From contig CAWIKP010000012.1 in the NCBI GenBank assembly GCA_963836735.1, positions 25,441 through 89,440 of the forward strand: 64,000 bases of DNA. Direction: 5' to 3'. Position numbers and translations under genes: made by a program. The DNA comes from an uncultured Acidobacteriota bacterium (GTDB lineage Bacteria; Acidobacteriota; Vicinamibacteria; Vicinamibacterales; 2-12-FULL-66-21). Below, piece by piece: positions 1,759-61,474 of this stretch (its first letter is position 1; every line of letters starts with the position of its first letter). Under the pieces are notes generated by a model that worked only from the letters and a program-made list of their open reading frames with translations, did not search any database and had not been told where the DNA came from.

Positions 1759-2010
1759 GGGTTCAGGGTTCCGGGTGCAGGGTTCCGGGGTTCGGTTCAG
1801 GGTTCACGGTTCGGTTCCGGGTTCACGGTTCAGGGTTCACGTTCGGTGCTCAATCAGCGCAAGTGGAAGGTTCGTTCGCCTCTGAGTTTACAGGCTGGAT
1901 GAAATGGAATGCACAACGCTCGAACCAGCTGGAACCCCGAACCCAGAACCCTGAACCGAACCCGGAACCCTGAACCGAACCCTGAACCCGGAACCCCGGA
2001 ACCCGGAACC
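1759..2010. repeat. Tandem-repeat-armed palindrome (unit GGTTCNG / CNGAACC) filling the corA-mutL gap
   Basis: Left arm 1759-1846 is ~12 consecutive 6-7 nt GGTTC(A/C)(G/C) units. Right arm 1921-2010 is ~13 units of the reverse complement (GAACC). A unique 74-nt spacer lies at 1847-1920. The element abuts the mutL start codon (1756-1758) and ends 2 nt before the corA stop (2013-2015). Confidence 0.85.
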
Positions 2011-2012
2011 GA

Positions 2013-2978
2013 CTAAATCCAACCCTTCCGTCGAAACACCGTAATCATCCCGACCGCGAGCGCGACCATGATGCCGACGACCCACCAGAACTGCCACTCC
2101 TCACCGCCTGGCATGTGCGGCAGCGTCACGTTCATGCCGTACATGCCGGTCAACACCGTCATCGGCAGGAAGATCGTCGAGATCAGCGTCAGCACCTTCA
2201 TCACCTGGTTCAGCTGATTCGAGACCGCCGACAGATGCGCGTCGAGGATGCCCGAGATCCGATCCTGGAAGAACATGGCTTCATCGGACAGCCGCACCAG
2301 GTGGTCGTGCACGTCTCGAAACCGATAGGCCAGCTGTTCGGAAATCAACGCAAACTCCCGCCTCGCCAGCCGACCCACCGCGTCCCGCTCCGGCAGCACG
2401 ACCTGCCGCAACGATGCGACGTCGCGCTTGAGGTCGAGGATCTGCCGGGTCTGCTTCGGATTGGGCTTCTCGAACACCTCGGTTTCCAGCTTGTCGAGCC
2501 GCTGCTGGAGCTTCTCGATCTCCGGCCGGTAGTTGTCGACCAGCGCATCGATCAGCCGGTGCAGCAGCGCCGCGGTCCCTTCGGCGAGGACCTGGTTGTT
2601 GCGTTCGCAGATTTGCTCCACCTTCGAGATCGATCGCGACACCCCGTGATGGATGGTGAGGAGAAACTGCGGCGAGAGAAAGAAATCGACATCCTTGGTC
2701 TTGAACAGGTGGTGGCGCGCCTGGAAGTCGATGCCGTGCAGGACCAGGTAGAGGTACTCGCCGTAGGAGTCGATCTTGGGGTGATGGATCTCGGCGAGCG
2801 CATCTTCGATTGCGAGCTCGTGGATGTGGAACACGTCGCTGAGGATCTTTGCCTCCGCGGCGGTTGGGTTGTCCATCACCACCCAGACCAGCACCCCGCT
2901 CCCGGGCTGCAGCCATGCGGGGTCCACGGCCTCGACGGGCTTCGTCACCCCGTTCTGGTGCGCGTAGATCTTGACCAA
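2013..2978 (-). CDS. corA: Magnesium/cobalt transporter CorA
   Basis: Intact 321-aa ORF. The C-terminus carries the CorA signature YGMNV (LTGMYGMNVTLPHMPG) between two hydrophobic helices (LISTIFLPMTVL and WQFWWVVGIMVALAVGMITVF). Confidence 0.9.
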   Translation of the reverse strand: MVKIYAHQNGVTKPVEAVDPAWLQPGSGVLVWVVMDNPTAAEAKILSDVFHIHELAIEDALAEIHHPKIDSYGEYLYLVLHGIDFQARHHLFKTKDVDFFLSPQFLLTIHHGVSRSISKVEQICERNNQVLAEGTAALLHRLIDALVDNYRPEIEKLQQRLDKLETEVFEKPNPKQTRQILDLKRDVASLRQVVLPERDAVGRLARREFALISEQLAYRFRDVHDHLVRLSDEAMFFQDRISGILDAHLSAVSNQLNQVMKVLTLISTIFLPMTVLTGMYGMNVTLPHMPGGEEWQFWWVVGIMVALAVGMITVFRRKGWI

Positions 2979-3066
2979 GCCTGCGATCTTATCGCAGCGT
3001 CACGGAAGTGTCCGTGCGCGCAAACACGACGGGCCGCCCGGAATCTCCGAGCGGCCCTCGTTCTTC

Positions 3067-3086
3067 CTTCCGCCAAAAGGCGGAAG
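3067..3086 (-). terminator. Hairpin CTTCCGCC-N4-GGCGGAAG directly after the ppdK stop
   Basis: An 8-bp perfect stem (3067-3074 / 3079-3086) with a 4-nt A/T loop touches the ppdK stop codon (3087-3089). The same stem sequence recurs after corC at 23092-23111. There is no clear U-tract. Confidence 0.45.
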
Positions 3087-5919: not shown

Positions 5920-5928
5920 TTCGACTGC

Positions 5929-8119
5929 CTACTCCGTGTGAGGAACGATTTCAGAGATGTCCGCGAGCGCGAGAATCATGTCGCGCAGGGTGGCCATGAG
6001 CGTCAGCCGCGCGGTCCTCACGCGGGCATCCTCGGCCATGACGAACACTTCGGTGAAGAATCAATCGACGACCGGCCGAAGGGCCGCCACGTCGGTGAAC
6101 GCGCGGGTGTAATCGGCCCGCGCCGCGGCCGCGTCAATCCCGGGACGCGCCGCGTCGAGCCCGGCAAGCAGCGCGCGCTCGGCCGGCTCGGTCAGCGCCG
6201 CGCGATCGAGCGCCGGCACCTCGGCCAACTCCTTCGCGATGTTCTTGACCCGCTTGAACAACACCGCCACCGCCTGGAAGTCCTCGGACGATCGCATCCG
6301 CTGCAGCGCTTCGGCGAGGCGGCGAGCGCGTAGCGGCGCGACGTCCGGCGTGGAGGTGACCGCGCGGACGATTTCGACCGGGTATCCACGCTGCTCGAGC
6401 GCGAAACGCACCCGCTCGACCGCGAACGCCGCGGCCTGGCCGGTGACGGCTCCCGTCCGCGCCAGCGAACGCCCCGCGAGCCCGATCCACGAGTGGACCG
6501 ACTCCGAGCTCGCGATCGATGCCGGTCAGTTCCGGCAGATCCATCAGGATTCGGACGATCCCGTGCATCTGGCGACGCAGCCCGAACGGATCCCGGGAGC
6601 CGGTCGCACGCTCGCCGGCATGCATCAGCCCCGTCACCGTATCGAGCTTGTCGGCCAGCGACACCGCCGCCCACGTGACCGCCGCCGCGCCGAGTTCCGC
6701 GCGGCCCGGCGGCGCGTCGGCTTCGACGCCCACCGGCAGGTAGTGGTGATAGATCGCCTTCCAGACCTGCTCCGGCTGGCCTTCCTCCCGGGCGTAGACC
6801 CCTCCCATCGTGCCCTGCAGCTCGGGAAACTCGAACACCATGTCGGTCGTCAGGTCCGCCTTGGCGAGACGCGCCGCGCGCCCCGCGAACGCCGCCGCTT
6901 CCGGCTGGCCAAGCCCATCATTCGCAATCCACGCCGCGAGCGCCTCGATGCGCTCCGCCTTGTCGCGGTAACTTCCCAGTTTCTTGTGAAACAGCAGCGT
7001 GTGCAACCGTTCCAGCCGGGACTCCAGCGTGGTTCGCCGATCGCTCTCCCAGAAGAACCGCGCATCGCGCAGCCGGGCCGTCACCACCCGTTCGGCATTC
7101 TTCGCGATCAGGCGCTCGTCCTTGGGCTGCGTGTTGACGACGGCGAGGAAGGCTTCCTTGAGCTCGCCACGGTCCGAGAGCACGGGGAAGTAGTGCTGAT
7201 GGTGGACGAGCGTGGTGGCCAGCACCTCCTGCGGCAACGCGAGAAACGCGCGATCGAAGAACCCCGCAACCACCCCGGGGAATTCGACGAGATCGGCGAC
7301 CTCGTCGAGCAGGCGCTGGTGGTCCTTCAGCGCCACGCGGCCGTTCAGCCGGCGAGCGTGACCTTCGAGATCCCGCGCAATGCGATCCCGGCGCTCCGCG
7401 TGCTCGAGGACGATGAAGTGCTCCTTGAGGCGAAGCTGGTACTCGTCGAAGCTGCGGACCTTGATCGATCTCCCGGCGCGGCCGCTGGTCGCGAGAAACC
7501 GGTGACCGTAGGTCAACGCGCCCGAGGGCACTTCCTGCACCGATGACCCGGCGGCATTGGCCGCGCGTCCGATCGTGAAGGGCACCACCCGCCCTCCATA
7601 AAGGAACAGCAGCCAGCGAATCGGACGCCCGAAGACGAACTCGCCCCGTCCATCGTCGAGGGTCGCGTCCCATTTCATCTGCTTGGGAAACGTCAGGTCG
7701 CGGAGCACGCCGCCGAGCACGTCGGGCAGTGCATCGATCGCGCTCTTGCCGCGCTGGCGCTTGAGGAACGTGAGGTATTCGCCGCGCGGCGAAGCGGCCC
7801 GCCCCAGTTCCTCGACCGTGACACCCTGTTTCTTCGCGAAGCCAATCGCGGCCGGCGTGGGCTGGCCCTGAGCGTCGAACGCCGCAGACACGGGCGGCCC
7901 GGTCACGACCTCTTCGAGGTCCTCCTGCCGCTCCGCGATCTTGGCCAGCCGCGCGGTGAGACGACGCGGCGTGCTGTAGGTCTCGACCGGCGCGCCGGGC
8001 GCAATGCGCGCTTCCTTGAGCCGCGCCTCGAGCCGCTCGCCAAGCTGGCGGGTCAGAGCCGGCATCCAGGCGGCCGGGAGCTCCTCGACGCCGATTTCTA
8101 TTAAAAGCTCTCTATCCAT
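5929..8119 (-). pseudogene. glyS: Glycine--tRNA ligase beta subunit; frameshift near 6440-6470 and in-frame TGA at 6061-6063
   Basis: ORF 6134..8119 starts MDRELLIEIGVEELPAAWMP and matches GlyS throughout. After ...GVGPLVDR the sequence continues in the +1 frame (VTGQAAAFAVERVRFALEQRGYPVEIVRAV..., ORF 6061..6411). After the TGA the same frame continues with FFTEVFVMAEDARVRTARLTLMATLRDMILALADISEIVPHTE* (stop 5929-5931). Confidence 0.9.
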
Positions 8120-8200
8120 TCAGTTACTGTCTCGGAGTCTCTTCCACCGGTCTTCACGGTCACGCTGCAATCATGATCACGGTTGCGCTTCGCGCATTCA

Positions 8201-8378
8201 CTACGACACGACGCTCACGACGGCAACGACGTTAGTGCGTTTCGTTCGGGTAACGTCAACTTCATCCTGCTTTCAGGGCGCTGTTCACTGCCCGCTTCCG
8301 ATCACTGGTGGAAGGCGCCGCGACTTTGCCACTTACCCATTTGCTTGCGTCGTGTCGTCGTGTCGTCGTGTCGTCGTG
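8201..8378. repeat. Tandem-repeat-armed palindrome (ACGAC-type units / CGTCGTGT x3.5) in the glyQ-glyS gap
   Basis: Left arm 8201-8231 is ctacgacacgacgctcacgacggcaacgacg. Right arm 8348-8378 is cgtcgtgtcgtcgtgtcgtcgtgtcgtcgtg, with an 8-nt period. The spacer is ~116 nt. The right arm lies inside the last ~15 codons of the glyQ ORF. Confidence 0.75.
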
Positions 8379-10116: not shown

Positions 10117-10199
10117 TCGGGGCTCGGGGCTCGGGGACTCGGGGGCTCGGAATTCTTCGATTCCGGTTTGCTCTTCCGAGCCCCGAGTCCCGCGCCCCG
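10117..10199. repeat. Tandem-repeat-armed palindrome (unit GGGGCTC / GAGCCCC) in the mgtE-recO gap
   Basis: Left arm 10117-10150 is tcGGGGctcGGGGctcGGGGactcGGGGGctcgg. A 25-nt spacer (aattcttcgattccggtttgctctt) follows. Right arm 10176-10199 is ccgagccccgagtcccgcgccccg. Confidence 0.85.
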
Positions 10200-10245
10200 C
10201 TTGCCCGCCGTAGCGCGCAGCGCGAAGGCGGGAGTCCCGAGCGTC

Positions 10246-15140: not shown

Positions 15141-15267
15141 CAGAGGGACTCTATCGAACTACCGGGTTGGTCCGGCGTTCTGTTTGCATTTCTTGTTTGT
15201 GGTGAGGGGCCCCGCCTCCGATCCAACCCTCCAACCAACCCAACTGACCACATCGTACGTTATACTG

Positions 15268-15297
15268 ACCAAGCGGTCATTTCGATGACCGCTTGGT
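15268..15297. promoter_or_regulatory. Perfect 13-bp inverted repeat; putative TetR operator in front of the efflux operon
   Basis: ACCAAGCGGTCAT-TTCG-ATGACCGCTTGGT ends 3 nt before the tetR ATG (15301). A -10-like TATACT sits immediately upstream at 15261-15266. Confidence 0.6.
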
Positions 15298-15300: not shown

Positions 15301-15933
15301 ATGACACACAGAGCGCTCCAGCCAAGTAAAGACGAGGTCGTTTCCGCGTACCGCCGGGACCAGATCCTCACCGCCGCTCACGGTGTCTTCGCCAGCAAGG
15401 GGTTTCGCCCGGCGACCGTCGGCGACATTGCCGATGCGGCCGGGATCGCCAAGGGCACGCTCTACCTCTACTTCAAGTCGAAAGACGACATCTACTGGGC
15501 GGCGATGAATCGCGGCCTGGACGGGCTGCAGGCGCTGACCGCGGCGGCGCTGGACGGCGTCGGTCACCCGCGAGAAAAGCTTCGCGCCTTCATCGAAACC
15601 AAGGTCCGCTTCTTCGACGCGGATCGGGACTTCTTCAGCATCTATTTCGCGGAGTTCGGCAACGTGTCCCCTCATCATCTGCCGGCGCAGAAGCCGTTTC
15701 TCCGCCGCTACATGGATCAGGTCGAGCTGCTGGATCGGACGCTGCAGCAGGCCGCGGCGGACGGACTGGTCCGCACGGCGGCCCTGAATGGCCTCGGCTA
15801 CTCGGTGATGGCGCTCACCGCGAGCGTGATCGCCCGGCGGCTTCGCGGCTGGTCGCAGGGCTCGCTCGAGGAGGATGTGACCGCCGCAGTCGAGCTGCTC
15901 TGGAAAGGCGTCGCGGAATCCCGTCATGCGTAA
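15301..15933 (+). CDS. TetR/AcrR family transcriptional regulator
   Basis: 210 aa with an N-terminal HTH (ILTAAHGVFASKGFRPATVGDIADAAGIAKGTLYLYFKSKDDIY). It overlaps the downstream outer-membrane gene by 8 nt. Confidence 0.88.
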   Translation: MTHRALQPSKDEVVSAYRRDQILTAAHGVFASKGFRPATVGDIADAAGIAKGTLYLYFKSKDDIYWAAMNRGLDGLQALTAAALDGVGHPREKLRAFIETKVRFFDADRDFFSIYFAEFGNVSPHHLPAQKPFLRRYMDQVELLDRTLQQAAADGLVRTAALNGLGYSVMALTASVIARRLRGWSQGSLEEDVTAAVELLWKGVAESRHA

Positions 15934-17339
15934 CTTCGTGCGGTTTCTCTGCACCGCGCTCGTTGCCGCGTCCGCCGGCGCCCGGGCCTCGGCACAGGTG
16001 CTTCCTCCGCGCGGCCCCCTCGGCGACGCGGGGCCGTTCTCCGGGGCCGTTCCGACAGGTCAGCGATCGGATCAGCCGCTGCCGCTCACGTTGACCGATG
16101 CCATCGCCCGCGGACTTCAACACAACCTCGGTGTGATCACACGACAAGAGGACGTCGAGAAGGCTCGGAGCGATCGATGGCGTGCGCTCTCGGCGGTGCT
16201 GCCGAACGTCTCCGGACGCCTCAGCGCCGATCGCGAGGTCATCAACCTCGCAGCGCTGGGCTTCAGTGGCTTTCCTGGAATCCCCGCGGTCATCGGCCCG
16301 TTCAACGTGTTCGACGCACGCATCGGAGTCTCCCAGCCGGTGATCGATTCGCAGGGCATCTTTCACCTGCACGAGACCAATCACGACCTGAGCGCCGCCC
16401 AGCACAACTTCCGGAATGCTCGTGACCTGGTGGTGGTCGCCGTTACGAACCTCTATCTGCAGGCGCTGGCAACCGACAGCCGTGTTGCCGCCGTGCGGGC
16501 CGAACTCGAGACCGCGGAAGCGCTCGCCACGCTCGCCGAAGATCGCCGCAAGGCCGGGCTGGTACCGGCAATCGATGCCAACCGGGCGCAGGTGCAGCGG
16601 CAGAACGCCCAGCAGCGGCTCATCACGTCCGAGAATGCTGCCGCCAAACAGAAGCTGGTGCTCGCCCGCGCGATCGGGCTTCCTCTCGGGCAGGCGGTCT
16701 CCCTCACCGACCCGATGCCCTACGCGCCCGGCACGGCGCCGTCGCTCGACGCCGCGGTCAAGGAGGCGTACGCCCATCGCGAGGATCTGCAGGGACAGGA
16801 AGAAGCGCTGAACGCCGCGCGTGATGCCGAACGGGCCGCGACCGCCGCGCACCTGCCCTCTCTGCATGTCGACGCCAACTGGGGGGCGATCGGCCAGACT
16901 CCTGGCGAAGCCGTGCCGACCTACACGGTGGGCGCCTCGGTGCACGTGCCGCTGTTCAACGCGGGTGCCGACAAGGCGCGCTCCATCGAGGCGGCAGCCA
17001 CAGCGCGGCGCCGCCGCGCGGAGCTCGAAGACACGCGCGCGAAGGTCTACTACGAGGTGCAGACGGCGCTCCTCGACGTCGACGCGGCCCGGCGGCAGGT
17101 GGATCTGGCGACGCGTACAGGTCGCGCTCGCCGATGAGCAGCTCGCGCAGGCGCGCGACCGGTTCGGAGCCGGAGTCGCCGACACGATCGAAGTCGTCCA
17201 GGCCCAGGAAGCGCTCGCCAGCGCCCACGATGCGAGCGTCGTCAGCCTGTACGGCTACAACGCGGCACGGGCCTCGCTGGCGGCGGCGCTCGGCCTGGCT
17301 GAAGAAGACATGCCGCGATTCCTCGGAGCCTCGAAGTAA
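15926..17339 (+). pseudogene. TolC-like outer membrane efflux protein; frame broken near 17110-17120
   Basis: ORF 15926..17137 has a signal peptide and two OEP repeats. The last ~70 aa (VQVALADEQLAQARDRFGAGVADTIEVVQAQEALASAHDASVVSLYGYNAARASLAAALG...) are in the +1 frame, which ends at 17339. Confidence 0.85.
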
Positions 17340-21615: not shown

Positions 21616-23051
21616 TTGCCACCTGCCGGTTTCTTGGCGTCGTAGTCGGTCACCCGCTTGCTCTGGTCGGGCTTCGCCGCCTGATCCAGCTTGCCCTCCG
21701 GCACGACGCTGAGCACCACGCGTCCACTCGTCAGGTACTTGTTCGCCACGCGCTTGACGTCCTCGGCGGTCACCGAGAGCGTCTTCTTGTAGGCGGTTCG
21801 GAAATAGCCGGCGTCGCCGTGATAGCCCGCGCCGTCAGCCAGTTGAAAGGCCTTGCCCAGGTTCGACTCCAGGTTGCTCACGAAGCCCAGCTCCTCGCCG
21901 GCGATCGCCTTCTGAATCTCCTCGGCGGTGGGGCCTTCCTTCTTCAGCCGCTCGATGATCGCCTCGCTCGCCGCTTCGAGCGAGGTCAGCGTGTGCCCGG
22001 GCCGCGGCGTGATGATCAGGATGAACTCTCCGACATCCTCGTTGGTGGACTGACCCGACTGCACGGAGGCCGCGGCCTGCTCGTCGTAGACCAGCGCTTT
22101 GGTGATCCGCGCCGTGCGCGCGCCGCTCAGGATCGTGCCGAGCACGTCGAGGGCGAAGCGGTCGTCGTGCTTCTCGCCGACCGTCGGCCACTGGATGTAG
22201 AGGCGAGGGACCTGCACGCGGTCCTCGTAAACGAGCCGCTTCTCCGCGCTGAGCGTCACCGGTTCGACCTTCGGCCGGGTGATCGGCTTGCCGCGGCCGA
22301 TGTCGCCGAAGTACTTGGTCACCCAGGCCTTGGTCTGGGCGCTGTCGAAGTCCCCCACGATCGACAGATAGGCGTTGTTGGGCGCGTAGTACAGCCGGAA
22401 GAAGTTCTTGACGTCCTCTTCGGACGCCGCGGACAGGTCCTCCATGCTGCCAATCACGTCCCATGAGTAGGGATGGGTGGACGGATAGGTGGCGTGCGCG
22501 AGGATTTCACCGGCGCGGCCGTACGGCTGGTTGTCGTACGCACTGCCGGCGCTCGTTCTTCACGATGTCCCGCTGCGCGTTCAGCTTGGCCAGGTCGAGC
22601 GCGTCGAGCAGGTAGCCCATGCGGTCGGCCTCGAGCCAGAGCGCGGACTCGAGATAGTTCGACGGCACCGTCTCGTAATACGTCGTCCGATCGTTGTTGG
22701 TGGTCCCGTTGTTCGATCCGCCGACGCCTTCGGTGAGCTTGTCGTGCAGACCGTAGGGCACGTTGCCCGAACCGGTGAACATGACGTGCTCGAACAGATG
22801 GGCGAAGCCCGTTCGTCCGACCACTTCGTTCTTCGAGCCCACCTTGTACCAGACGTTGACCGCGACGGTCGGCGTGGCCTTGTCGGGCGACAGGATCACC
22901 GTCAGGCCATTCGGCAGCGTGTAGGTTTCAAATGGCAGCTTGATGGCGTCGCGCGCCGGCTGCGGCCGGGACGCGTCGGGGACTGAGCGGACAGCGCAGT
23001 GCTCAGCGAGAGGGTGATGACGAAGGCAAGTCTGCGTATGGGTGAATGCAC
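21612..23051 (-). pseudogene. M16-family zinc peptidase (HxxEH); frame broken near 22538-22546 and 22977-22983
   Basis: Three fragments make up the gene. The first has a GTG start at 23051 with a signal peptide (VHSPIRRLAFVITLSLSTALSAQ). The second is PDASRPQPARDAIKLPFETYTLPNGLTVILSPDK...GFAHLFEHVMFTGS (ORF 22507..22899). The third is ...YDNQPYGRAGEILAHATYPSTHPYSWDVIGSMEDL... (ORF 21612..22457). Confidence 0.85.
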
Positions 23052-29158: not shown

Positions 29159-29180
29159 CTCACGGATCTTAACAAACCGC

Positions 29181-38874: not shown

Positions 38875-38950
38875 CTCCGAGATATGATCCGTCCGACTCT
38901 TGTCACCCGGGAGGCAGACAAACATCGCGCGGACGCCGGTTTTTTCGGGC

Positions 38951-42827: not shown

Positions 42828-42915
42828 CGCCGTGCTCCTATGGCTGACCAATAGGAGCCTCGCACATCTCGTATTGGGTGGCAATAGGGAAATGGATCGG
42901 CTGGGGGACGCTAGG

Positions 42916-43100
42916 CCGCTGGTCCGCTGGTCCGCTGGTCCGCTGGTCCGCTGGTCCGCTGGACCGCTGGTCCGCTGGACCGCTGGACGGCTCGTCCGAT
43001 GGGCCGCAGGTCGACGGGGGCGTCGACAACTGGCTGACCCACCCGCGTACTCTGCGGACCCGGAGAACGGACCAGCGGACAGCGAACCAGCGAACCAGCG
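42916..43100. repeat. Tandem-repeat-armed palindrome (unit CGCTGGTC, 9 phased copies vs ~4 complementary copies) between the divergent ADOP genes
   Basis: GCTGG recurs every 8 nt from 42918 to 42982. The right arm 43069-43100 is ggaccagcggacagcgaaccagcgaaccagcg. The spacer contains nested palindromes (ccgcag...gtcgac-gggggc-gtcgac...ctgcgg). Confidence 0.88.
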
Positions 43101-43140
43101 ATTTCCAAACGAAATCTCTCCAGACCGCGTCTAACTCCCC

Positions 43141-45610
43141 ATGCTCGAAGCCTTTGTCAAAGATCTGAAGCAATCCATACGGATGTTCCGGCAGAGTCCT
43201 GCGTTCACCGGTGCGGCGGTGGCCGCGCTCACGCTGGGGATTGGCGCCAATACGGCGATTTTCTCGGTCGTCAACGCCGTCCTGCTGAGGCCGGTTCCGT
43301 TCCTCGATCCCGACCGGCTGGTGCTGTTTCTCAACACGTCGCCGCAGGGGTCGGGCCCGGGAGCCTCCCCGCCAAGTTCCAGCACTGGAAAGCCCTCGAT
43401 TCGGTCGTCCAGGACGTCTCGGTCTTCCGCACCGGCATCATGAACTACACCGGTGGCACCTTTCCGGAGCAGTTGCGGTCCGGCCAGGTGTCGGTCGATT
43501 TCTTCAAGCTCTTGGGCGCGCCGATCATCCGCGGCCGCAGCTTCACCGCGGCGGAAGACCTGCCCGACGCCGAACGGGTCGTCGTCATCAGCCAGCGATT
43601 CTGGGAGAGCCGCTTCAATCGGACGGAGGACGTGATCGGGAAATCGATTTCGCTGAGCGGTGAGCCCTACACCGTCGTGGGCGTGCTCGGCGATACGTTC
43701 GACTTCACCGAGTACGGGCCACAGCCACAGGTCTGGTATCCGTTCCAGCTCCCGCCGAACACGACCGATCAGGGTCACTACTTCACGGCTGCTGGCCGGT
43801 TGAAGCCGGGAGTGTCGCTGGAGCAGGCGAAGACGCGGGTCGCGGCGTCGGCCGAGGAATACAAACGCAGGTTTCCGAACGCGCTCGGACCGAACGGCGG
43901 CTTCTCGCGTCGATCCGATTCGCGACGTGCTCGTCAGGAACGTGCGGCAGTCGCTGTTCGTCCTCGGCGGCGCCGTCAGCTTCGTGCTGCTGATCGCGTG
44001 CGCCAATGTCGCCAACCTGCTGCTGGTCAGGGCGACCGGCCGGCGCCGCGAGATCGCGATTCGCGCGGCGATCGGTGGCTCTCGCGGCCGCATCATCCGC
44101 CAGCTGCTCACCGAGAGCGTCGTCCTGTCGCTGGCCGGCGGCGTCCTCGGAATGATCTTCGGCGTGATTGGGATCCGGGCGCTGCTGCAGGTCAATACCG
44201 CGGGGCTGCCCCGCATCGGCGAAGCCGGCGCCGCGGTCGGCGTCGACTGGCGTGTCATGGCGTTCGCCTTCCTCGTCTCGCTGTTCACCGGCGTCGTGTT
44301 CGGCCTGATCCCGGCCCTCCAGAGCTCGAAGACCGATCTCACGACCACCTTGAAGGAAAGCAGCGGACGATCGGGCACCGGCTTCAGGCAGAACAAGGCA
44401 CGGTCGATCCTCGTTGTCACCGAAGTAGCGCTCGCGCTCGTGCTGCTGATTGGCTCGGCGCTGCTGATTCGCACCGCGGTGGCCCTCGGGCGCGTGAACC
44501 CGGGCTTCGACGCGACCAACGTCCTGACCATGCGGATGTCGCTGACCGGACCGCGCTACCAGAGCGCGCAGGGCGTCGAGCAGATGATCCGGAACGGCGT
44601 CGAGCAGCTGAAAACGCTGCCCGGCGTGGTCGACGTCAGCGCCACCTGTTGTGTGCCGCTGACCGGCGGGTATGGCCTGCCGTTCATCATCGTCGGCCGG
44701 CCGGTCGAAGGGCCGGGGCCGTTCCACGGTGGCGGCGGGTGGATGACGGTCTCGCCGCGCTACTTCGAGGTCTTCAAGATCCCGGTGAAACGCGGCCGCA
44801 CGTTCGAGATCCGTGACGACGCCACGTCGCCGCCGGTCATCATCATCAACGAGACGATGGCCAAGAGGTACTGGGCCGACAAGGATCCGCTGAACGATCG
44901 CCTGACCGTCGGGCGCGACATCATGCGCGAGTTCGCCGGCGAGCCGGATCGTCAGATCATCGGGGTGGTGGGCGACATCCGTAACGGCGGCCTCGACAAC
45001 GAGCCCAACCCCATGATGTTCATTCCACAGGCCCAGGTACCGGATCTGGTCAACCGTCTGAACCTGCGTCTCTCGCCCATGGCCTGGCTCATACGCACGC
45101 AGACCGAACCGCTGTCGATGAGCAACGCCATCCAGGAGCAGCTGCGCCAGTCGACCGGGCTGCCGGTCTCCGACGTGCGGTCGATGTCGCAGGTCGTGTC
45201 GCGATCGGTATCGCGCCAGAAATTCAACATGTGGCTGATGACGGTGTTCGGCTGCCTCGGCGCTCCTCCTCGCCGCGATCGGCATCTACGGCCTGATGGC
45301 GTACTCGGTCGAACAGCGGACCCAGGAGATCGGCATCCGGATGGCGCTCGGCGCCCAGGCTTCGCAGGTGAAGAACATGATCGTCCGCCAGGGGATGGTG
45401 CTGGCGATCGCCGGCGTGGCCATCGGCCTCGCTTTCTCTTTCGGCCTCGCACGGTTCATTGCCACGTTCCTGTTCGGCGTCGGGAAGTGGGATCCGCTCG
45501 TCTTCGTCGCGGTTCCTGCGGTGCTGACGTTCGTCGCGCTCGTGGCGGTCTGGCTTCCGGCCCGCCGTGCCAGCCGGGTCGATCCGATGGTCGCGCTCAG
45601 ATACGAATGA
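43141..45610 (+). pseudogene. ADOP/MacB-like ABC permease, second copy; three frame breaks (~43370 -1, ~43905-43912 +1, ~45262-45268 +1)
   Basis: The fragments are [49 protein letters not shown]..., then ...[30 protein letters not shown]..., then ...VDPIRDVLVRNVRQSLFVLGGAVSFVLLIACANVANLLL...REIAIRAAIG..., and finally ...LLAAIGIYGLMAYSVEQRTQEIGIRMALGA...VDPMVALRYE*. Confidence 0.88.
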
Positions 45611-45654
45611 CCGCGACCTCGTGCAATAATGACGCCGCCCATTCGAGGGGGGTC

Positions 45655-47988
<2,334 letters not shown>

Positions 47989-48009: not shown

Positions 48010-48115
48010 GATGTAGGGCGGAGATCGGCCGGGTCTGAAGACCCGCCCTACATCCGCACGAGGAGCCTGCTCCACCGTCTGTAGGGCCGGGTCTTAGACC
48101 CGGCCGATTTCCGCC
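48010..48115. repeat. Inverted pair of ~37-nt REP-like units (TGTAGGGC...GGGTCTNAAGACCC) between convergent genes
   Basis: Unit 1 (48017-48053) is ggcggagatcggccgggtctgaagacccgccctaca. Unit 2 (48079-48115), read on the other strand, is ggcggaaatcggccgggtctaagacccggccctacag, ~90% identical. The TAA stop of the Gfo/Idh/MocA gene (48094-48096) is the loop of the unit-2 hairpin ggccgggtc-tta-gacccggcc. Confidence 0.8.
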
Positions 48116-52983: not shown

Positions 52984-52990
52984 AGACCCG

Positions 52991-53038
52991 CGGTTCGCGG
53001 GTTCGCGGTTCGCAGTTCGCCGGGTCTGAACACCCGGC
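52991..53038. repeat. Four GGTTCGC heptamers followed by a REP-like hairpin (gccgggtctgaacacccggc)
   Basis: cggttcgcgggttcgcggttcgcagttcgc (52991-53020) is followed by the stem ccgggt/acccgg around ctgaac (53019-53038). It lies just after the padR stop. Confidence 0.65.
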
Positions 53039-54741: not shown

Positions 54742-54809
54742 GGGAGCTCCGCTACTTCATTGCCAAAAGGTCCGCCTTCGCGCCGTTACTAATCGGGCGG
54801 CGCTCCGGC

Positions 54810-55068
54810 GAGACCTCGCCGTAGCTGGTCGGTGGATTCTCGCCGACCAGCGTAGGCGGGCCAACATTGCCAAGATTGCCAAATCAAATGCTGGGCACGT
54901 TCCGACGCTTCAGCAGCCAGGCACAACTCTGCTCCCTCGAGCTCGCAGTCTTCGCAGTTGGCAATCCTGGTGCGGGGTGAGTGACGCCCCGGAGTCGCCC
55001 ACGTCCGAACTGCCCCGAGCATTTGCAATCTTGGCAATTTTGGCAATCTTGGCACTTCTGGCAATGCT
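54810..55068. repeat. Composite element in the OFOR/ROK gap: copy 2 of the 75-nt repeat plus a palindrome with 9-nt ATTGCCAAG / CTTGGCAAT arms
   Basis: 54810-54883 matches 52269-52343; its hairpin is 54824-54832 / 54843-54851. Left arm 54862-54893 is ccaacattgccaagattgccaaatcaaatgc. Right arm 55019-55068 is gcatttgcaatcttggcaattttggcaatcttggcacttctggcaatgc. The spacer is ~125 nt. The element ends at the OFOR-beta stop (55069). Confidence 0.85.
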
Positions 55069-56124
55069 CTAGCGGAAGCGCGCCTGCAGCTTGTCCAGTT
55101 CGGCGCTTCCGGGACACAGCTCTTCGTAGGAGAGCTGCGTCAACGGCGTCGCGACCGTATCGTTCTGCTCGTGCAGGTCGCTCGAGTCGGGTGAGAGATA
55201 GAGCAGGCCGGTCACGATCTCGCCCTCTTTCTGCCGCTCGCGGATGTAGGCGTAGGCGCGATCGCGATCGGTGGGGTCGTACTGCTCGGCCACCTTGCGC
55301 AGCCGCACGGCGCTCCCGTCGTGGAGCGTGACGGTCTGGACGCTGCCCGGCTCGTAGTCGGTGGTGATCGCCCGGGTTGGCAGCACGAAGTCCGCCTGCA
55401 CGACCTCGACGTTCTTCTCGCGCGTGTAGGCGTAGCTCTTGGTGGACCCTTCGTGGTCGTTGAACGTGACGCAGGGGGAGATCACGTCGATGAACGCGAA
55501 GCCCGCGTGCGAGAGCCCGGCCTTGATGATCGGCACGAGCTGCGCCTTGTCGCCCGAGAAGCCGCGGGCGACGAACGTCGCGCCGAGCGCCAGCGCCAGC
55601 AGGCAGCCGTCGATCGCTTCCATCGTGTTCGGCTCACCCTTCTTGCTGAGCGAACCGGGATCGGCCGACGCCGAGAACTGGCCCTTGGTCAGGCCGTAGA
55701 CGCCGTTGTTCTCCAGCACGTAGAGAACGTTGACGTTGCGGCGGATCGCATGGCACAGCTGCCCGAGGCCGATCGACAGCGAGTCGCCGTCGCCGGACAC
55801 GCCGATGTAGATGATGTCGCGATTGGCGGCGTTCGCGCCGGTCACCAGCGCCGGCATGCGCCCGTGCACGCCGTTGAAGCCGTGCGCCTCGCGCAGGAAA
55901 TACGCGGGCGTCTTCGACGAGCAGCCGATGCCCGACAGCTTGGCCACCCGGTGCGGCGGAATCGACAGTTCCCAGAAGGCCTGGATGATGGCCGCCGTAA
56001 TCGAATCGTGGCCGCACCCGGCGCAGAGCGTCGTCAGCGAGCCTTCGTAGTCGCGGCGGATCAGGCCGATCGCGTTCTTCTGGAGCGCGGGATGATGAAC
56101 CGTGGGCTTGGCGATGTAGGTCAC
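55069..56124 (-). CDS. 2-oxoacid:ferredoxin oxidoreductase, beta (TPP-binding) subunit
   Basis: The GTG at 56124 is preceded by GGAGAAAG and overlaps the alpha-subunit stop (GTGA). The sequence reads VTYIAKPTVHHPAL...TLCAGCGHDSI...GVSGDGDSLSIGLGQL...NNGVYGLTKGQ, and the protein is 351 aa. The listed ORF 55069..57033 is a chimera with a shifted alpha fragment. Confidence 0.88.
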   Translation of the reverse strand: MTYIAKPTVHHPALQKNAIGLIRRDYEGSLTTLCAGCGHDSITAAIIQAFWELSIPPHRVAKLSGIGCSSKTPAYFLREAHGFNGVHGRMPALVTGANAANRDIIYIGVSGDGDSLSIGLGQLCHAIRRNVNVLYVLENNGVYGLTKGQFSASADPGSLSKKGEPNTMEAIDGCLLALALGATFVARGFSGDKAQLVPIIKAGLSHAGFAFIDVISPCVTFNDHEGSTKSYAYTREKNVEVVQADFVLPTRAITTDYEPGSVQTVTLHDGSAVRLRKVAEQYDPTDRDRAYAYIRERQKEGEIVTGLLYLSPDSSDLHEQNDTVATPLTQLSYEELCPGSAELDKLQARFR

Positions 56125-57919
56125 GCCGCTTTCTCCAGTCTGGCCTTGACGCCGGCGATCACGTGATGGGCGCTCATCGGGAACCCGCCGTAGTAGCGAA
56201 CCGGCTCCAGCTTCTCGACCGCGACGCCGGTCTCGAGCTGCAGCAGGTTGCGAAGCTGCCCGTCGCGATTCTGCTCGACGATGAAGTTCACGTCGTGTCG
56301 CTCGAGGAAGGCGCCCACCTCGTCGCCGAAGGGGAAGCCCGCGGACGCGCATGTAGTTCACCGCGATGCCGTCGGCGGCGAGCCGGTCGAGCGCTTCGGT
56401 GCAGGCGGCATGACAGCCGCCGACCGTGACCAGCCCGACCCGGGCGCCCGCGGCCAGCTGCACGATCGGCTGGGGCACCGCACGCGCCGCGCGCTGGATC
56501 TTGCGATCGATCCGATCGATGACCTCGACGTATTCCTCGGAGTCCTCGGTGTAGGCGCCGAAGCGGTTGTGCCCCGAGCCTCGCGTGAAGTACGCCCCGC
56601 TCGGGTGCACGCCTGGAAGCGTCCGGGGCGCGATCCCGTCGCCATCCGCATCGATGTAGCGGGCGAAGGACTTGACCTCGTCCAGCTCCTCCGCCGAGAG
56701 CACCTTGCCGCGGTCGGGCCGATAGTTGTCGTCCCAGGTGAGCTTCGGCACCATCCAGTCGTTCATGCCGATGTCCAGATCGGTGAGCACGAAGACCGGC
56801 GTCTGGAACCGCTCGGCGAGATCGAACGCGCTCGCGGCGAATTCGAAGGCCTCCCGGGGATCTCCGGGATAGATGCAGATGTGCCGGGTGTCGCCGTGCG
56901 ACGCATACGCGCACATCATCAGGTCGCATTGCTGCGTGCGGGTCGGCATGCCGGTGGAGGGTCCGGTGCGCTGCACGTCGAAGATCACCGCCGGAACCTC
57001 GGCGTAATACGCCAGCCCGATGAACTCGTTCATCAGCGAGATGCCCGGGCCCGGCGGTCGGCGTGAACGCGCGCGCGCCTGCCCACGACGCCCCGATCAC
57101 CATGCCGATCGCGGCGATCTCGTCCTCGGCCTGGAGAATCGCAAACCGGTTCCGACTGGTCTCGGGCTCGCGGCGATACTTCTGGCAGAACCCTTTGAAG
57201 GCTTCCATCAGCGACGTCGCCGGCGTAATCGGATACCACGCGCCGACCGTCGCCCCGGCGTAGAGGCAGCCGAGCGCCGCCGCGGTGTTGCCGTCGATCA
57301 GAATCGAATCGCGGGTGAGATCCAGTGCCGACAGGTGAATCGGGAGCGGACAATCGAAGTGCGCCTTCGCGTAGTCGTAGCCGATGTCGACCGCCTGCCG
57401 GTTGGAGTCCATCAGCGCCGGCTTGCGCCCGTACCTTTCCTTGAGCAGCGCGCGGATCACGTCGGGATCCATGTTCAGCAGCGCCGCCAGCGCGCCGGCG
57501 TACGCGATGTTCTTCATCAGGATCCGCTCGCGCATGCCGGAGAACCGTGCGTTGCACATCTCGGCGAGCGGGATGCCCAGATAGGTGATATCGGGCCGGA
57601 GCAGCCGCTGATCGAGCGGCCAGGTCGAGTCGTACAGCAGCCAGCCCCCGGAACGGACTTCGGCGACGTCCCGGCCGTAGGTGGCGGGATTGAGCGCCAC
57701 CATCAGGTCGAAATGAGGCGTCCTCGCGGTATAGCCGCGCTCGCTGACCCGGATCTCATACCAGGTCGGCAGCCCCTGAATGTTGGAAGGAAACACGTTC
57801 TTGCCGGTGACAGGAATGCCCATCCGGAAGATCGCCTGCATGATGAGCCCGTTGGCGGAGGCCGATCCGGTCCCGTTGGCGGTGGCGATCTTGAACGCGA
57901 AGTCGTTGGTCTGGTTCAT
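56121..57919 (-). pseudogene. 2-oxoacid:ferredoxin oxidoreductase, alpha subunit; two +1 frame breaks (~57040-57050, ~56334-56342)
   Basis: MNQTNDFAFKIATANGTGSASANGLIMQAIFRMGIPV...FTPTAGPG is followed by ISLMNEFIGLAYYAEVPAVIFDVQRTGPSTGMPTRTQQCDL...AVNYMRVRG and then FPFGDEVGAFLERHDVNFIVEQNRDGQLRNLLQLE...ARLEKAA*. Confidence 0.88.
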
Positions 57920-57920
57920 A

Positions 57921-58053
57921 AAGTCGAAACAGCTTCCAGCTCCCAGCTTCCAGCTTCCAGCGGCTCGGGAGTGACATCGCCCGGCCGCTGACGACACCGA
58001 GAATCCGGAGCTCTGAGCTGGCAACTGGAAGCTGGAAGCTGGCAACTTTCGAC
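57921..58053. repeat. Tandem-repeat-armed palindrome (unit CAGCTTC / GAAGCTG) between the GltD-like gene and OFOR-alpha
   Basis: Left arm 57921-57961 is aagtcgaaacagcttccagctcccagcttccagcttccagc. Right arm 58017-58053 is gctggcaactggaagctggaagctggcaactttcgac. The 55-nt spacer contains ctcgggagtgacatcgcccgg. Confidence 0.88.
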
Positions 58054-58063
58054 GTCAGTTCCC

Positions 58064-59869: not shown

Positions 59870-59913
59870 TATAGGGCAATCGCGGCAAAGCGTTGGAAGT
59901 CGCGGGATGGCTA

Positions 59914-60034
59914 GGCTCGGGGCTCGGGGCTCGGGGCTCGGGGAGCTCGGGGTAATCAGAGGCAACGAGCAAATCGGCAGGGCTTCGACCCCGCCATTCG
60001 ACTTTCAGCTCGAATCCCGAGCCCCGAGCCCCGG
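59914..60034. repeat. Tandem-repeat-armed palindrome (unit GGGGCTC) with a partial copy of the conserved core
   Basis: Left arm 59914-59952 has five GGGG runs. Right arm 60016-60034 is cccgagccccgagccccgg. The spacer starts taatCAGAGGCAACGAGc; that 13-mer (59957-59969) is identical to 38784-38796 and 61386-61398. Confidence 0.85.
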
Positions 60035-60041
60035 ACAAGCG

Positions 60042-61302
60042 TCAGACCGCAATCGCCGGCGCCGTCAGCGCGGCGAGCACTTCCTTGTAGAGATACTTCG
60101 CGCCCTCCACGCCGTTCAGCGGCCCTTCCTCGTACTCGAGCGCGAAGGTGCCCTTGAAGCCGCCGGCGAGCATGATGCGCACCGATCGCTGCACGTCGTT
60201 CCTGTCGCCCCAGCGGTCCCAGTACTTGGCGTGCACGTTGGTGTGCGGCGTACGGCGCGAGCGCCTTGAGGCCGTGGAAGAGCATGTACTCGTGCTCCCA
60301 GTTGCAGAAGTCGGGAGACGCCTCGCAGTACGGGTGGTTCACCTCGTCGAGGATGATGCGGATGTTCTGCGGATCGGCCGCCAGGCCCCAGTGGTTCTCG
60401 ATGGTGACCTTGATGCCGAGGTTGCCGCCGTAGTCCGCCATCTCCTTGTACGACTCGATCGCGGCCTTCAGCATCGGGACGATGTCGACGTTGCGGGGGT
60501 AGCCGTCGCCGGGACCGCGCGGGATGGCGTTCGGCCGGATGCCCGGGCCGAGCGCGGACGTGGAGTTCATGCGCATCGACTTCACGCCGAGCACCGCGCA
60601 GCCCTCGAGCCACTTCTTGCGCGATCTCGACACCAGCCTTGCGCGGCGTCCTCGTCCGGTCCGGCGAGATTGGTCGGCGCGTTGTTCGAGATGTGCTGGC
60701 ACTTGACGCCGGTCTTCGCCATGACGCCGGCCAGGCGATCGAGCCACTTGCGCGCCGGAGGGCGTCGACGGATCGAACGTGCGCCCGGCGAACATGCTGT
60801 CGTCGGTGACGTCCCCGAACAGCCCCGAGAACAGGTCCATGTGCGTCACGCCCGGGAACGTGTCCTTCGTGAACTGCGGGAAGTCCAGCATCGTGATCTC
60901 GCCGTACTTCGCCTTCATCTGTTCCGGCGACCAGCCGCCGTTGGCTGGAGAACGCTGAACGATCGGCGCGGCGTCACCGCCCCTGCCCGCTGCCGGCGCG
61001 CGGCGCCTGGGTCGCGCCGGCCTGCGCTCCTGGTGCTGGCGGGGCTGCCGCCGGCGCCTCCCGGCGCCGCGCCGCGGCCCACCGCCGCCGCCCCGCCCCG
61101 CGCCCCCGCGCGCTGCTTGAAAATCGATCGAATCGGCCACGTGCACGACGCAAGGCGCATCGAGCCGATCCTTGTCGGTCTTGAACTGCGCCAGCGCCCG
61201 CTCGGCCGGCGTCAGCGCCACACCCGCCGCCGTGAGCCCCGCACCCGCGACCCGGATGAAATTGCGTCGATCAATACCCTTGTCGGTCTGCTGTTCTTCC
61301 AT
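60042..61302 (-). pseudogene. Tat-exported sugar phosphate isomerase/epimerase (xylose isomerase-like TIM barrel); about four +1 frame breaks (~60750-60760, two near 60625-60650, ~60238-60246)
   Basis: The twin-arginine signal is MEEQQTDKGIDRRNFIRVAGAGLTAAGVAL. The body reads ...FPGVTHMDLFSGLFGD... / KWLDRLAGVMAKTGVKCQHISNNAP / KKWLEGCAVLGVKSMRMNS...IKVTIENHWGL...PDFCNWEHE / NVHAKYWDRWGD...FALEYEEGP...*. A Gly/Arg-rich linker (60950-61130) has an uncertain frame. Confidence 0.75.
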
Positions 61303-61345
61303 CTCGTTGCCCTCGAGCGTGCATCATATCGCGTCGCGTCGGCTA

Positions 61346-61474
61346 CGGGGCTCGGGGCTCGGGCCGGGCCGGCGGACCGGTGTACCAGAGGCAACGAGCC
61401 GCTGGGATCTGCCACCGTTGCCATCTGAGTACACCGGCTCTGCCGAGCCCCGAGCCCCGAGCCCCAGCCCCGAG
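61346..61474. repeat. Tandem-repeat-armed palindrome (unit GGGGCTC) with a conserved 61-nt hairpin core, in the divergent TIM-barrel/pilT gap
   Basis: The left arm is 61346-61372. Core 61377-61437 is ccggtgtaccagaggcaacg-[19-nt loop agccgcTGGGATCtgccac]-cgttgccatctgagtacaccgg. Right arm 61443-61474 is ccgagccccgagccccgagccccagccccgag. Confidence 0.9.

Follow-up and report, generated by a model that had tools for sequence, protein, structure and literature searches.

The closest precedent for the elements considered here is provided by the inverted arrays of the heptamer GGGAATC in Xanthomonas campestris and X. axonopodis, of which each genome carries 70-75 pairs (Rehm et al. 2015, PMC4692102). 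These arrays are 89-93% intergenic, lie nearer the end of the upstream ORF and, at corresponding gaps, vary in length and sequence between related species; the paired arrays are convergent, on opposite strands, and could form stem-loops or cruciforms, and no function was found for them (PMC4692102). Bacterial MITEs such as Nezha and Correia offer a second point of comparison, filled and empty sites in close relatives being accepted as evidence of their mobility (Delihas 2011, PMC3184786). REP/BIME sequences have been assigned putative roles in supercoiling, in termination and in the stability of mRNA (Di Nocera et al. 2013, PMC3733652; Nunvar et al. 2010, PMC2817692). Intergenic tandem heptamers that often end beside a start codon are known from cyanobacteria (STRR) and, as TAACTGA repeats, from Beggiatoaceae (MacGregor 2015, PMC4679880).

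We analysed a stretch of 64 kb of DNA from a soil bacterium of the Vicinamibacterales (Acidobacteriota), referred to below as the window, and compared it with loci on the metagenome contigs of relatives, some of them mosaic (L followed by a number). Like the Xanthomonas pairs, the elements of the window consist of at least two tandem units in each of two nearby intergenic arrays on opposite strands. Xanthomonas uses a single genome-wide unit, discussed as a G-quadruplex motif, whereas at least eight different units of 7, 8 or 9 nt occur within these 64 kb, most of them without G3 runs; family-specific cores, the presence of one family at several loci and the presence or absence of whole elements, all found here, are not described in PMC4692102. 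The first-pass annotation of this DNA knew of no described family of the kind, and the Xanthomonas arrays supply a precedent.

The elements share with MITEs (80-430 nt) a small size, below about 400-500 bp, an intergenic and non-coding nature, terminal inverted repeats around a core, a stable predicted fold and an occurrence in several copies. They differ in having tandem arrays as arms, atypical for MITEs, in place of a single terminal inverted repeat, in the absence of any visible target-site duplication and in having no known parent insertion sequence. As for REP/BIME sequences (PMC3733652, PMC2817692), they are extragenic palindromes just after genes, lack target duplications and cluster or nest with other repeats; REPs, however, are single, imperfect hairpins of 20-40 nt with a conserved GTAG/CGTC head and RAYT (Y1/HUH) transposases, whereas the elements of the window have arms built of repeats and no common head. 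Single-armed arrays resembling those of STRR and TAACTGA are present in the relatives examined, but the latter systems use one unit per genome, nearly always direct (in the BOGUAY genome, 169 sets are direct and 1 is inverted, PMC4679880). The Drosophila foldback transposons Galileo (PMC4168063) and FB also have inverted repeats that contain or consist of tandem repeats, arm growth by expansion and a variable middle. The analogy is architectural only; these transposons are eukaryotic, kilobase-scale elements with 7-9 bp target duplications and a P-superfamily transposase. Taken together, the elements seem to represent a variant, specific to this lineage, of miniature mobile or palindromic repeats and not a wholly new kind.

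Paired arrays and their gene setting

At 11 of 11 loci, tandem units of 7-9 nt on one side are matched by their reverse complement on the other. The inverted arms contain 3-12 units and surround a variable core, often with an inner stem or an outer segment particular to the family; the whole element measures 83-310 nt and contains no transposase gene. Tandem Repeats Finder reported arrays of period 7-9 on both sides at 10 of the 11 loci, the right arm alone scoring at the 8201 locus. An inverted-repeat finder paired arms of 23-79 nt, 81-91% complementary, at 1759, 25898, 29181, 38731, 54862, 57921 and 59914, figures that cover the loci among its 25 longest pairs. A detector designed for two tandem arrays of period 5-12, with reverse-complement units and at most 300 nt apart, recovered nine of the 11 loci, with no match in 30 second-order Markov shuffles and no pair of arrays in the same orientation. 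When folded as single-stranded DNA, the nine loci other than 8201 and 54862 gave z-scores from -5.7 to -15.9, and none of 200 shuffles folded as well. The paired-arm architecture that the first-pass annotation had described at these 11 loci is thus borne out by repeat finders, detector and folding.

Complementarity between arms, which the same annotation had named as a point that formal alignment could refute, is 0.81-0.97 in register, 0.56-0.81 one unit off and about 0.03-0.3 at offsets that are not multiples of the unit; the arms therefore mirror one another, down to the order in which variant units follow. Nothing that the annotation had held to speak decisively against it, such as arms not complementary beyond chance or a lack of intergenic enrichment, was encountered.

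Approximately 8% of the window has a non-coding score, and all 11 elements fall in this portion, of which they make up about a third; their frequency is about one per 6 kb. The ORFs that cross them are read-through tails of flanking genes and nothing else: the called ORFs of glyQ and of the TIM-barrel gene enter an arm because they meet no earlier stop codon. Their non-coding nature, as first described, is upheld, as is the view that they are not CRISPR arrays, which are made of 24-48 nt direct repeats with unique spacers, whereas here the 7-9 nt units are contiguous and the arrays inverted. Rfam gave no match at gathering thresholds. The elements are enriched in the lineage: one and the same detector gives a density of 14 per 100 kb for the window, against 5-8 for close relatives and 0.19 for other phyla. 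Paired arrays are far commoner than single arrays in the window, and single-armed arrays were seen in L001, L004, L087, L106 and L175 and at 52989-53020 of the window.

According to Pfam assignments, the flanking genes lie on the same strand at 8 of the 11 loci, and the remaining three are divergent gaps: GHMP kinase (-)/unknown (+), FtsX permease (-)/MacB permease (+) and TIM barrel (-)/T2SSE (+). This agrees with the setting first described, as does the filling of gaps from stop to start codon, with the abutments given there at 1758/1759, 2010/2013 and 26052/26053 and further ones at 57920/57921 and 58053/58055.

The GGTTCNG element (1759-2010, z = -8.7) occupies exactly the interval from the corA stop to the mutL ATG, with arms of about 12 units each (1759-1839 and 1932-2010) around a core at 1840-1931. 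In the glyQ-glyS gap, the CGTCGTGT element (8150-8378) comprises an outer segment (8150-8200) that is 92% conserved in relatives, a degenerate arm (8201-8231), a core (8232-8347) and a second arm (8348-8378), and so reaches left to about 8150, beyond the 8201 first described. A GGGGCTC element with a short core fills 10117-10199 in the mgtE-recO gap (z = -6.1); a separate REP-like palindrome adjoins it at 10203-10232, and another lies at 48017-48115. Directly after the aspS stop, in the aspS-phoH gap, the CAACTCC element (25898-26052, z = -15.9) is a hairpin over its whole length; its arms are built of heptamers, and its inner stem (AACCGGGTGAAAGCCG...) is unique. The TCCCAAN element (29178-29331, z = -11.7), between the M20-like gene and hisS, has a pair of 52 nt that is 88% complementary; its arms score 0.94 in register versus 0.56-0.62 when shifted by one unit, and the order of variant units is mirrored.

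Two divergent gaps follow, the first with a GGGGCTC element (38731-38875, z = -11.2) whose core is CCGGTGGTACCAGAGGCAACG...CGTTGCCTCTG, the second, between two MacB/FtsX-type permease genes, with an element of the 8-nt unit CCGCTGGT (42916-43101, z = -6.6). The arms of the latter are unequal (12 versus 4 units), one arm having expanded alone. The element of the 9-nt unit ATTGCCAAG runs from the OFOR stop to the ROK start (54758-55068), further than the 54862 first described, and carries a nested palindromic insertion of about 90 nt (54771-54859) within one arm. The CAGCTTC element (57921-58053, z = -7.1) begins 1 nt after the upstream TGA and ends 0 nt before the OFOR ATG. The last two are GGGGCTC elements, one at the 3' end of the TIM-barrel gene (59912-60034, z = -5.7), which keeps half of the family core (TCAGAGGCAACGAG), and one with the family core in the divergent TIM-barrel/T2SSE gap (61341-61474, z = -8.6).

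Dispersed families and variation among relatives

According to the first-pass annotation, the architecture is conserved while the sequence is specific to each locus, which would set the elements apart from REP and MITE families. This does not hold for at least three families, GGGGCTC, CGTCGTGT and CAACTCC, in which sequence outside the arms is conserved in multiple dispersed copies. GGGGCTC has four copies in the window, those at 38731 and 61346 having in common a core of 41 nt with 93% identity, and the family core was also found in L164, L165 and L083: the mgtE-recO gap of L164 and L165 contains a member with the core CAGAGGCAAC, and L083 has GGGGCTC arms and family core at the position of the window's 59912 element. 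The CGTCGTGT family is found in the glyQ-glyS gap in the window versus the OFOR-ROK gap in L082, with homologous outer segments, and the 24-nt outer motif present in both has no other occurrence in 1.36 Mb with up to 4 mismatches. CAACTCC occupies the aspS-phoH gap in the window versus the glyQ-glyS gap in L176 (9840-9979), with homologous arms and inner stem. The five other units, GGTTCNG, TCCCAAN, CCGCTGGT, ATTGCCAAG and CAGCTTC, were each met at a single locus or its orthologs only and are candidate families.

Relatives at about 95% DNA identity differ in whole elements, with exact boundaries. The corA and mutL genes abut or overlap (TGATG or TAG-TTG) in L164, L165 and L166, whereas in the window and in L167 an element of about 250 nt separates them. 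Between mgtE and recO, the outgroups L173, L175 and L176 have only 13-14 nt, as opposed to about 85-170 nt in gaps with an element. L165-L171 carry the glyQ-glyS element and L164 has part of it; it is absent from L163, which differs from the window by only 0.11 at 4-fold sites, and from L175. Different families occupy the OFOR-ROK gap of L081 and that of L082; in L081, the ortholog of the ATTGCCAAG element has the unit (ATTGCCAAR) and boundaries of the window's element and an unalignable core, and the 57921 element has orthologs with related units in L081 and L082, CAGCTKC being kept in all three. Empty sites could in principle be deletions rather than the pre-insertion state, which is unlikely for mgtE-recO because three outgroups are empty.

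Comparison of filled and empty sites at corA-mutL, mgtE-recO and OFOR-ROK (three sites with short junctions) revealed no target-site duplication, and no common target motif was visible at the filled sites compared. Neither the approximately 60 ORFs of the window nor the genes called at the relatives' loci include a transposase or other mobilising gene, and no RAYT gene was found in the window or the other data examined. Other palindromes sit nested inside elements.

Origin of the elements

We consider, with a probability of about 0.6, that the 11 loci are copies of several small, non-coding, palindromic foldback families, MITE/REP-like and dispersed in Vicinamibacterales. Copies of one family occupy non-orthologous gaps, and they sit in the handful of bases that separate a stop codon from the initiation region of the next gene. 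A trans-acting activity would copy the elements to new sites, probably acting on DNA in single-stranded or hairpin form, since target duplications are not visible and a hairpin runs along the whole element. Selection would purge insertions outside stop-start junctions, replication slippage would lengthen the arms, and template switching or gene conversion between them would keep their mirror symmetry at the DNA level, selection on the sense transcript presumably not being what maintains it. Symmetry at the DNA level is supported by the mirrored order of variant units, by arm mismatches of G:T and A:C in near-equal number, by a divergence of arm columns that is 2-3 times below that of core columns, in part an alignment effect of the repeated units, and by the expansion of one arm alone at 42916. 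A function for the host, as mRNA hairpins or cruciforms serving as insulators or terminators, would be secondary and putative; putative likewise is the operon punctuation at the RNA level that the first-pass annotation had listed among possible roles.

It is unlikely that the elements are instead lineage-specific RNA hairpins evolving in place without mobility, that is, terminators without U-tract, RNase III sites or stabilisers of mRNA ends that punctuate operons, their arms grown by slippage under selection for stem length. A stop codon does immediately precede 8 of the 11 elements, many relatives have a comparable hairpin with other units at the 3' end of the TIM-barrel gene, and canonical intrinsic terminators occur in the window only at chance level (3 versus 4.1, 9 versus 9.2 and 8 versus 6.6 expected). 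In a comparison of the window with L167, RNAalifold moreover counts 10 kept double changes, but an unbiased recount gives 4 Watson-Crick versus 3 non-Watson-Crick double changes and 16 one-sided ones. Arm mismatches relative to the sense strand (G:T 17, A:C 19, other 53) reveal no G:U bias, stability favours the sense strand in only 13 of 21 elements, one and the same set of arms and core recurs at non-orthologous loci, and termination within the corA-mutL insertion, where the genes overlap in relatives, would cut off mutL. Rho-independent terminators as a class are rejected, since the arms are not followed by a T-run and three of the elements occupy divergent gaps; a terminator scan reports no element as a whole hairpin, its single match within an element being a short hairpin in the interior of the 10117 element, on the strand that does not carry the flanking genes. 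Equally doubtful is a mutational bias of the lineage, with heptamer slippage and quasi-palindrome template switching on any short intergenic inverted repeat, neither transposition nor function, and convergent likeness of units. Heptamer simple repeats are over-represented in many bacteria, which is attributed to polymerase slippage (PMC4692102), and the single-armed arrays, the unequal arms at 42916 and mismatches that are symmetric between strands fit such a bias. Against it, different loci have unique non-repetitive cores and outer segments in common, cores of 90-130 nt cannot come from slippage in an ancestral gap of 0-13 nt, paired arrays far exceed single ones, and insertion polymorphism of multi-copy families with common cores is already partly seen. 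The number of units, in addition, does not change over 7 samples or from the window to L165 (4-fold-site divergence about 0.3), and this comparison of orthologous gaps, suggested in the first-pass annotation, disfavours the slippage-prone substrates it had listed among possible roles.

Arrays of binding sites for sequence-specific regulators or nucleoid proteins (iteron- or operator-like), or G-quadruplex elements like those of Xanthomonas, are much less probable still. The orthologous gaps that keep ATTGCCAAR or CAGCTKC while the core diverges would suit binding sites, and from their sequence GGGGCTC and GGGTTCN match G3-4N3-4 motifs; yet at least eight unrelated units stand beside unrelated housekeeping genes, in no consistent orientation to them and with a presence at housekeeping operons that varies between strains, and most units (CGTCGTGT, ATTGCCAAG, CAGCTTC, CAACTCC) have no G-runs. 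The many frameshifted-looking genes of the window (mutL, glyS, hisS, OFOR, M16 peptidase, DPP-IV, permeases) suggest an error-prone assembly, and palindromes could be an artefact of long-read metagenome assembly. This reading is effectively refuted: orthologous elements with matching units are carried by at least 8 independent Illumina assemblies, and are therefore not assembly artefacts, elements occur in other soil metagenomes, and all 11 fall exactly in intergenic gaps. A bolder idea, to which we give little credence, is that of an undescribed class of bacterial foldback elements, in which a structure-specific and not sequence-specific enzyme would move hairpin single-stranded DNA, the insertions being tolerated in tight operons as the transcribed hairpin rejoins stop and start at its foot. 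Translational coupling would thereby survive insertion, in a manner resembling ribosome shunting; the 1759 and 57921 elements, which leave 0-2 nt between stop, hairpin and start, and the overlap of corA and mutL in relatives without the element are consistent with this idea.

Implications for genome analysis

The elements offer a multi-family system in which to ask why inverted arrays built of heptamers arise, a question left open in Xanthomonas, and a test of the effect of long palindromes within operons on termination, mRNA processing, translational coupling and supercoiling. The mobilising enzyme, if found, would be relevant to hairpin-directed DNA transposition. Vicinamibacterales rank with the most abundant bacteria of soil and have been little studied, and at the frequency seen in the window the elements are a major unannotated genome component; as they vary from strain to strain, they could serve as strain markers. 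They also stretch ORF calls into their arms, as for glyQ and the TIM-barrel gene, and break short-read assemblies: three short-read contigs terminate within such an element.

Architecture and genomic setting of the elements

The 11 intergenic hairpins, named here by start position or repeat unit, were examined with several repeat finders. Tandem Repeats Finder scored arrays of period 7-9 on both sides at 10 of the 11 loci, only the right arm scoring at 8201, and an inverted-repeat finder paired the arms at seven loci among its 25 longest pairs (23-79 nt, 81-91% complementary). A paired-array detector, which requires two tandem arrays of period 5-12, no more than 300 nt apart, with reverse-complementary consensus units, recovered 9/11 loci and gave no hit in 30 Markov shuffles of the window; it found no same-orientation array pairs. 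Folding as single-stranded DNA gave z values from -5.7 to -15.9 for nine loci, none of 200 shuffles being as stable. Arm complementarity is 0.81-0.97 in register, 0.56-0.81 one unit off and about 0.03-0.3 at other offsets; the arms are true mirror images. The inverted tandem-unit architecture that the first-pass annotation had described from sequence alone at 11 loci is thus confirmed as an observation, its interpretation being supported in part.

At 25898, 38731, 61346 and 10117 the entire element is a hairpin, with a unique inner stem, whereas at 1759, 8201 and 54862 the core is non-palindromic and 90-140 nt long. The arms at 42916 are unequal (12 versus 4 units, five identical), which shows that a single arm can expand alone. 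Searches of the window against Rfam at gathering thresholds and with a tRNA scan returned no matches.

Coding regions were called with a sliding coding-potential track and Pfam. All 11 elements lie in the approximately 8% of the window that the track scores as non-coding, and the Pfam matches bear out the flanking genes and strands first proposed, with eight same-strand and three divergent contexts. At 1759 and 57921, stop codon, element and start codon are separated by 0-2 nt only.

Occurrence and turnover in related genomes

Many genes of the window are frame-split or truncated relative to homologs, namely mutL, glyS (661 aa versus 729 aa), an M16 peptidase, hisS, two MacB/FtsX permeases, DPP-IV and OFOR (3-1758, 6134-8119, 21612-22899, 27819-29159, 40164-42884, 43131-45610, 45629-47988 and 55069-58045), which points to indel errors of long-read assembly or to pseudogenes; two syntenic contigs from ENA, L081 and L082, are fragmented in the same way. 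Since such genes look frameshifted, as in error-prone long-read assemblies, independent evidence for the elements was sought. JGI short-read contigs encoding a GlyS 93-98% identical to that of the window carry the same elements in the same gaps, and further contigs from soil metagenomes have this architecture built from other units, namely CTGAATG, GGACATGAA, GGTTCGACA, GAAGTCA, AGCTATC, CGAGTGA and AGTCCAG; three short-read contigs terminate within such elements. The aspS gene has its best matches in Vicinamibacterales/Vicinamibacteria MAGs of the Acidobacteriota (63-81% amino-acid identity). With one detector, the window has 14 elements per 100 kb and close relatives have 5-8, against 0.19 (one match in 516 kb) for aspS loci from other phyla. 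Tandem-arm elements are real and enriched in this lineage.

Comparison with fetched loci of relatives and metagenomes (L numbers) reveals filled and empty sites. Between corA and mutL, the genes overlap (TGATG) in L164 and abut (TAG TTG) in L165 and L166, whereas in the window and L167 a GGTTCNG element of about 250 nt lies exactly between stop and ATG. The mgtE-recO gap measures 13-14 nt in three outgroups (L173, L175, L176); in the window, L163, L164 and L165 an element directly follows the stop and a conserved AATAGAATGTAGC is left before the start codon, and L170 has a different small hairpin. The glyQ and glyS genes overlap in L175, and L163, although only 0.11 of its 4-fold sites differ from those of the window, lacks the CGTCGTGT element (window 8150-8378) and has in its place a tiny hairpin of two units. 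Although L165, L167 and L170 share 6 kb of identical sequence and match at about 95% in the remainder, their element content is not the same. As near-identical relatives differ in this way, turnover is rapid compared with sequence divergence, and what is gained or lost is the whole element, with exact boundaries. Unit copy number, which the first-pass annotation had proposed comparing between strains at orthologous gaps, is by contrast stable while whole elements come and go: 3.9/3.9 units were found in seven samples, arm lengths are equal between the window and L165 at a 4-fold divergence of 0.23-0.36, and between the window and L167 the difference is one unit at most.

The 100% identity of L165, L167 and L170 extends over about 6 kb from recO to glyS and switches at the glyS-PPDK junction in both comparisons, reflecting either strain recombination or chimeric metagenome assembly. 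In L175, the site of the GGTTCNG element in the corA-mutL gap is occupied (about 16000-16070) by an array (GGGACTC)5(GGGAGTC)4, a G-rich pseudo-palindrome with quadruplex potential in which the GACTC/GAGTC parts are reverse-complementary and the G-runs are not.

Unit families and arm symmetry

Arm sequence had been regarded as specific to each locus; this may hold for five unit types, each encountered at a single locus and its orthologs only, but not for three, which form dispersed families. GGGGCTC has four copies in the window, of which 38731 and 61346 share a core CCGGTG(G)TACCAGAGGCAACGAG...CGTTGCC.TCTG (93% identity over 41 nt) and 59914 retains half of it; arms and core recur at the mgtE-recO gap (L164, L165) and at the 3' end of the TIM-barrel gene (L083). 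The CGTCGTGT element of the window glyQ-glyS gap, core included, is also present in L165-L171, and its arms and a homologous outer segment (GTCACGCTGCA.TC.TGATCACGG...) are found in the OFOR-ROK gap of L082, unlike the window and L081, where this gap holds the ATTGCCAAG element; the outer motif has no further occurrence in 1.36 Mb at up to four mismatches. The CAACTCC element between aspS and phoH in the window is homologous, in arms and inner stem, to one in the L176 glyQ-glyS gap. A blastn-short comparison of every core with these 1.36 Mb of retrieved sequence gave back the 38731/61346 pair and the 8150-8200 segment, and no more.

The central core of the GGGGCTC family is inverted in L165 (7890-8000; also in L083) relative to L164 (1803-1925) and the window copy (38770-38839), reading TTGGATC versus GATCCAA, which could result from arm-to-arm recombination that flipped the core or from separate insertions in the two orientations. 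In two genomes, elements of like units lie on either side of the TIM-barrel gene, GGGGCTC in the window (59914-60034 and 61341-61474) and GAGGTCA/AAGTCAG in L114 (1-79 and 1491-1549); the units are the same or related within a genome and different between the two, a pattern suggestive of elements spreading locally or converting their neighbours.

In ortholog comparisons, divergence is 2-3 times lower in the arms than in the cores, column by column (0.19 vs 0.48, 0.10 vs 0.33 and 0.32 vs 0.56; flanking 4-fold sites, 0.26-0.38), a contrast that is partly an alignment effect of the repeated units. RNAalifold counted 10 double changes kept and no broken pairs between the window and L167, but this count was not relied on: with the structure fixed beforehand there were 4 Watson-Crick doubles, 3 non-Watson-Crick doubles and 16 one-sided changes, so that compensation is only modest. 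Selection on the sense transcript was sought in the 21 elements of known sense strand and no bias was seen, either in arm mismatches (G:T 17, A:C 19, other 53) or in stability, the sense strand being the more stable in only 13/21. Because the preference for G:U expected under such selection was not seen, we infer that the arms owe their symmetry to the DNA level, through template switching or conversion between arms or through recent origin, and not to selection on RNA.

Nature of the elements and neighbouring repeats

The elements have no U-tracts, and sigma-70 promoters and canonical intrinsic terminators are at chance level in the window, neither being enriched; the sigma-70 scan found no promoter in the element cores and one weak match in a ATTGCCAAG arm. 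That they occupy divergent gaps, and also junctions where the genes of relatives overlap, speaks against simple terminators, and the many unrelated units argue against recognition by one sequence-specific protein. To judge by sequence, only GGGGCTC and GGGTTCN arms could form quadruplexes. Several other kinds of sequence were considered and rejected: CRISPR arrays; integron attC sites, because housekeeping genes rather than cassettes flank the elements; telomere-like repeats, because G-rich units are in the minority; and sigma-54 promoters in the TTGGCAA arms, for which the spacing is wrong. A phage link was also rejected, since the eight viral contigs that a scan for (GGGGCTC)3 turned up have direct arrays only and no inverted pairs. 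No transposase was found among the approximately 60 ORFs of the window. We read the elements as selfish, foldback, MITE/REP-like sequences that survive only in stop-start junctions, with possible secondary effects on the host. More speculatively, the transcribed hairpin might hold stop and start codons adjacent, which, if true, would account for the tolerance of whole-length palindromes within tight operons.

The first-pass annotation knew of no described family of this kind. A precedent exists in Xanthomonas, for which Rehm et al. (2015, PMC4692102) describe intergenic GGGAATC heptamer arrays that form 70-75 inverted pairs in each genome. These arrays are situated closer to the upstream ORF, differ from species to species and are of no known function; this is the closest description, and we found none in the literature for Vicinamibacterales or Acidobacteria. 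The window elements differ from the Xanthomonas arrays in their many units, family-specific cores, occurrence of one family at different loci and strain-level presence/absence. They resemble MITEs (Delihas 2011, PMC3184786) in size, inverted ends, copy families and filled/empty sites, but no target-site duplication was seen at the filled and empty sites compared and no parent insertion sequence is known. They are not REPs, short hairpins with a GTAG or CGTC head, and the analogy with Drosophila foldback elements and Galileo is one of architecture only. The elements belong, as a variant, with palindromic dispersed repeats and inverted heptamer arrays; they are of moderate interest for their density, multi-family nature and precise placement within operons.

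Other palindromic repeats are nested in or adjoin the elements, including a perfect 35-bp palindrome in the core of the L082 element and REP-like CCCGCCTTCGCGC...GGCGGG units. One arm of the ATTGCCAAG element (54758-55068) contains a palindromic insertion of about 90 nt (54771-54859, ends CCGCCT...AGGCGG) that is missing from the L081 ortholog. A second dispersed palindrome family, CCCGCCTTCGCGCT.CGCGCTACGGCG(G/A)G, occurs at 10203-10232 in the window, about 8945-9080 in L164 and about 9795-9870 in L167, in relatives often alongside GGGTGGCTTCCGGCT.AAGCCGGAAGCCACCC hairpins; in L164 and L167 it takes up the PPDK-corA gap, which is only 10-13 nt long in the window and L165. At 48017-48115, a near-perfect REP-like palindrome (49-nt arms, 1-nt spacer; GGCCGGGTCTGAAGACCCGCCCTACA and its complement with a GTAG motif) has no tandem units and is separate from the tandem-unit elements. 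A perfect 13-bp hairpin, ACCAAGCGGTCAT-TTCG-ATGACCGCTTGGT (15268-15297), just 5' of a TetR-family gene (15301-15933), itself followed by efflux genes, is probably a TetR operator. Heptamer arrays with one arm and no inverted partner are present at 52989-53020 (CGCGGTT, 4.4 copies) and 15223-15250 (CCAACCN-like), and similar arrays lie directly 5' of start codons in relatives (L001 2942-2986, L004 869-918, L087 about 860-905, L106 about 29-105).
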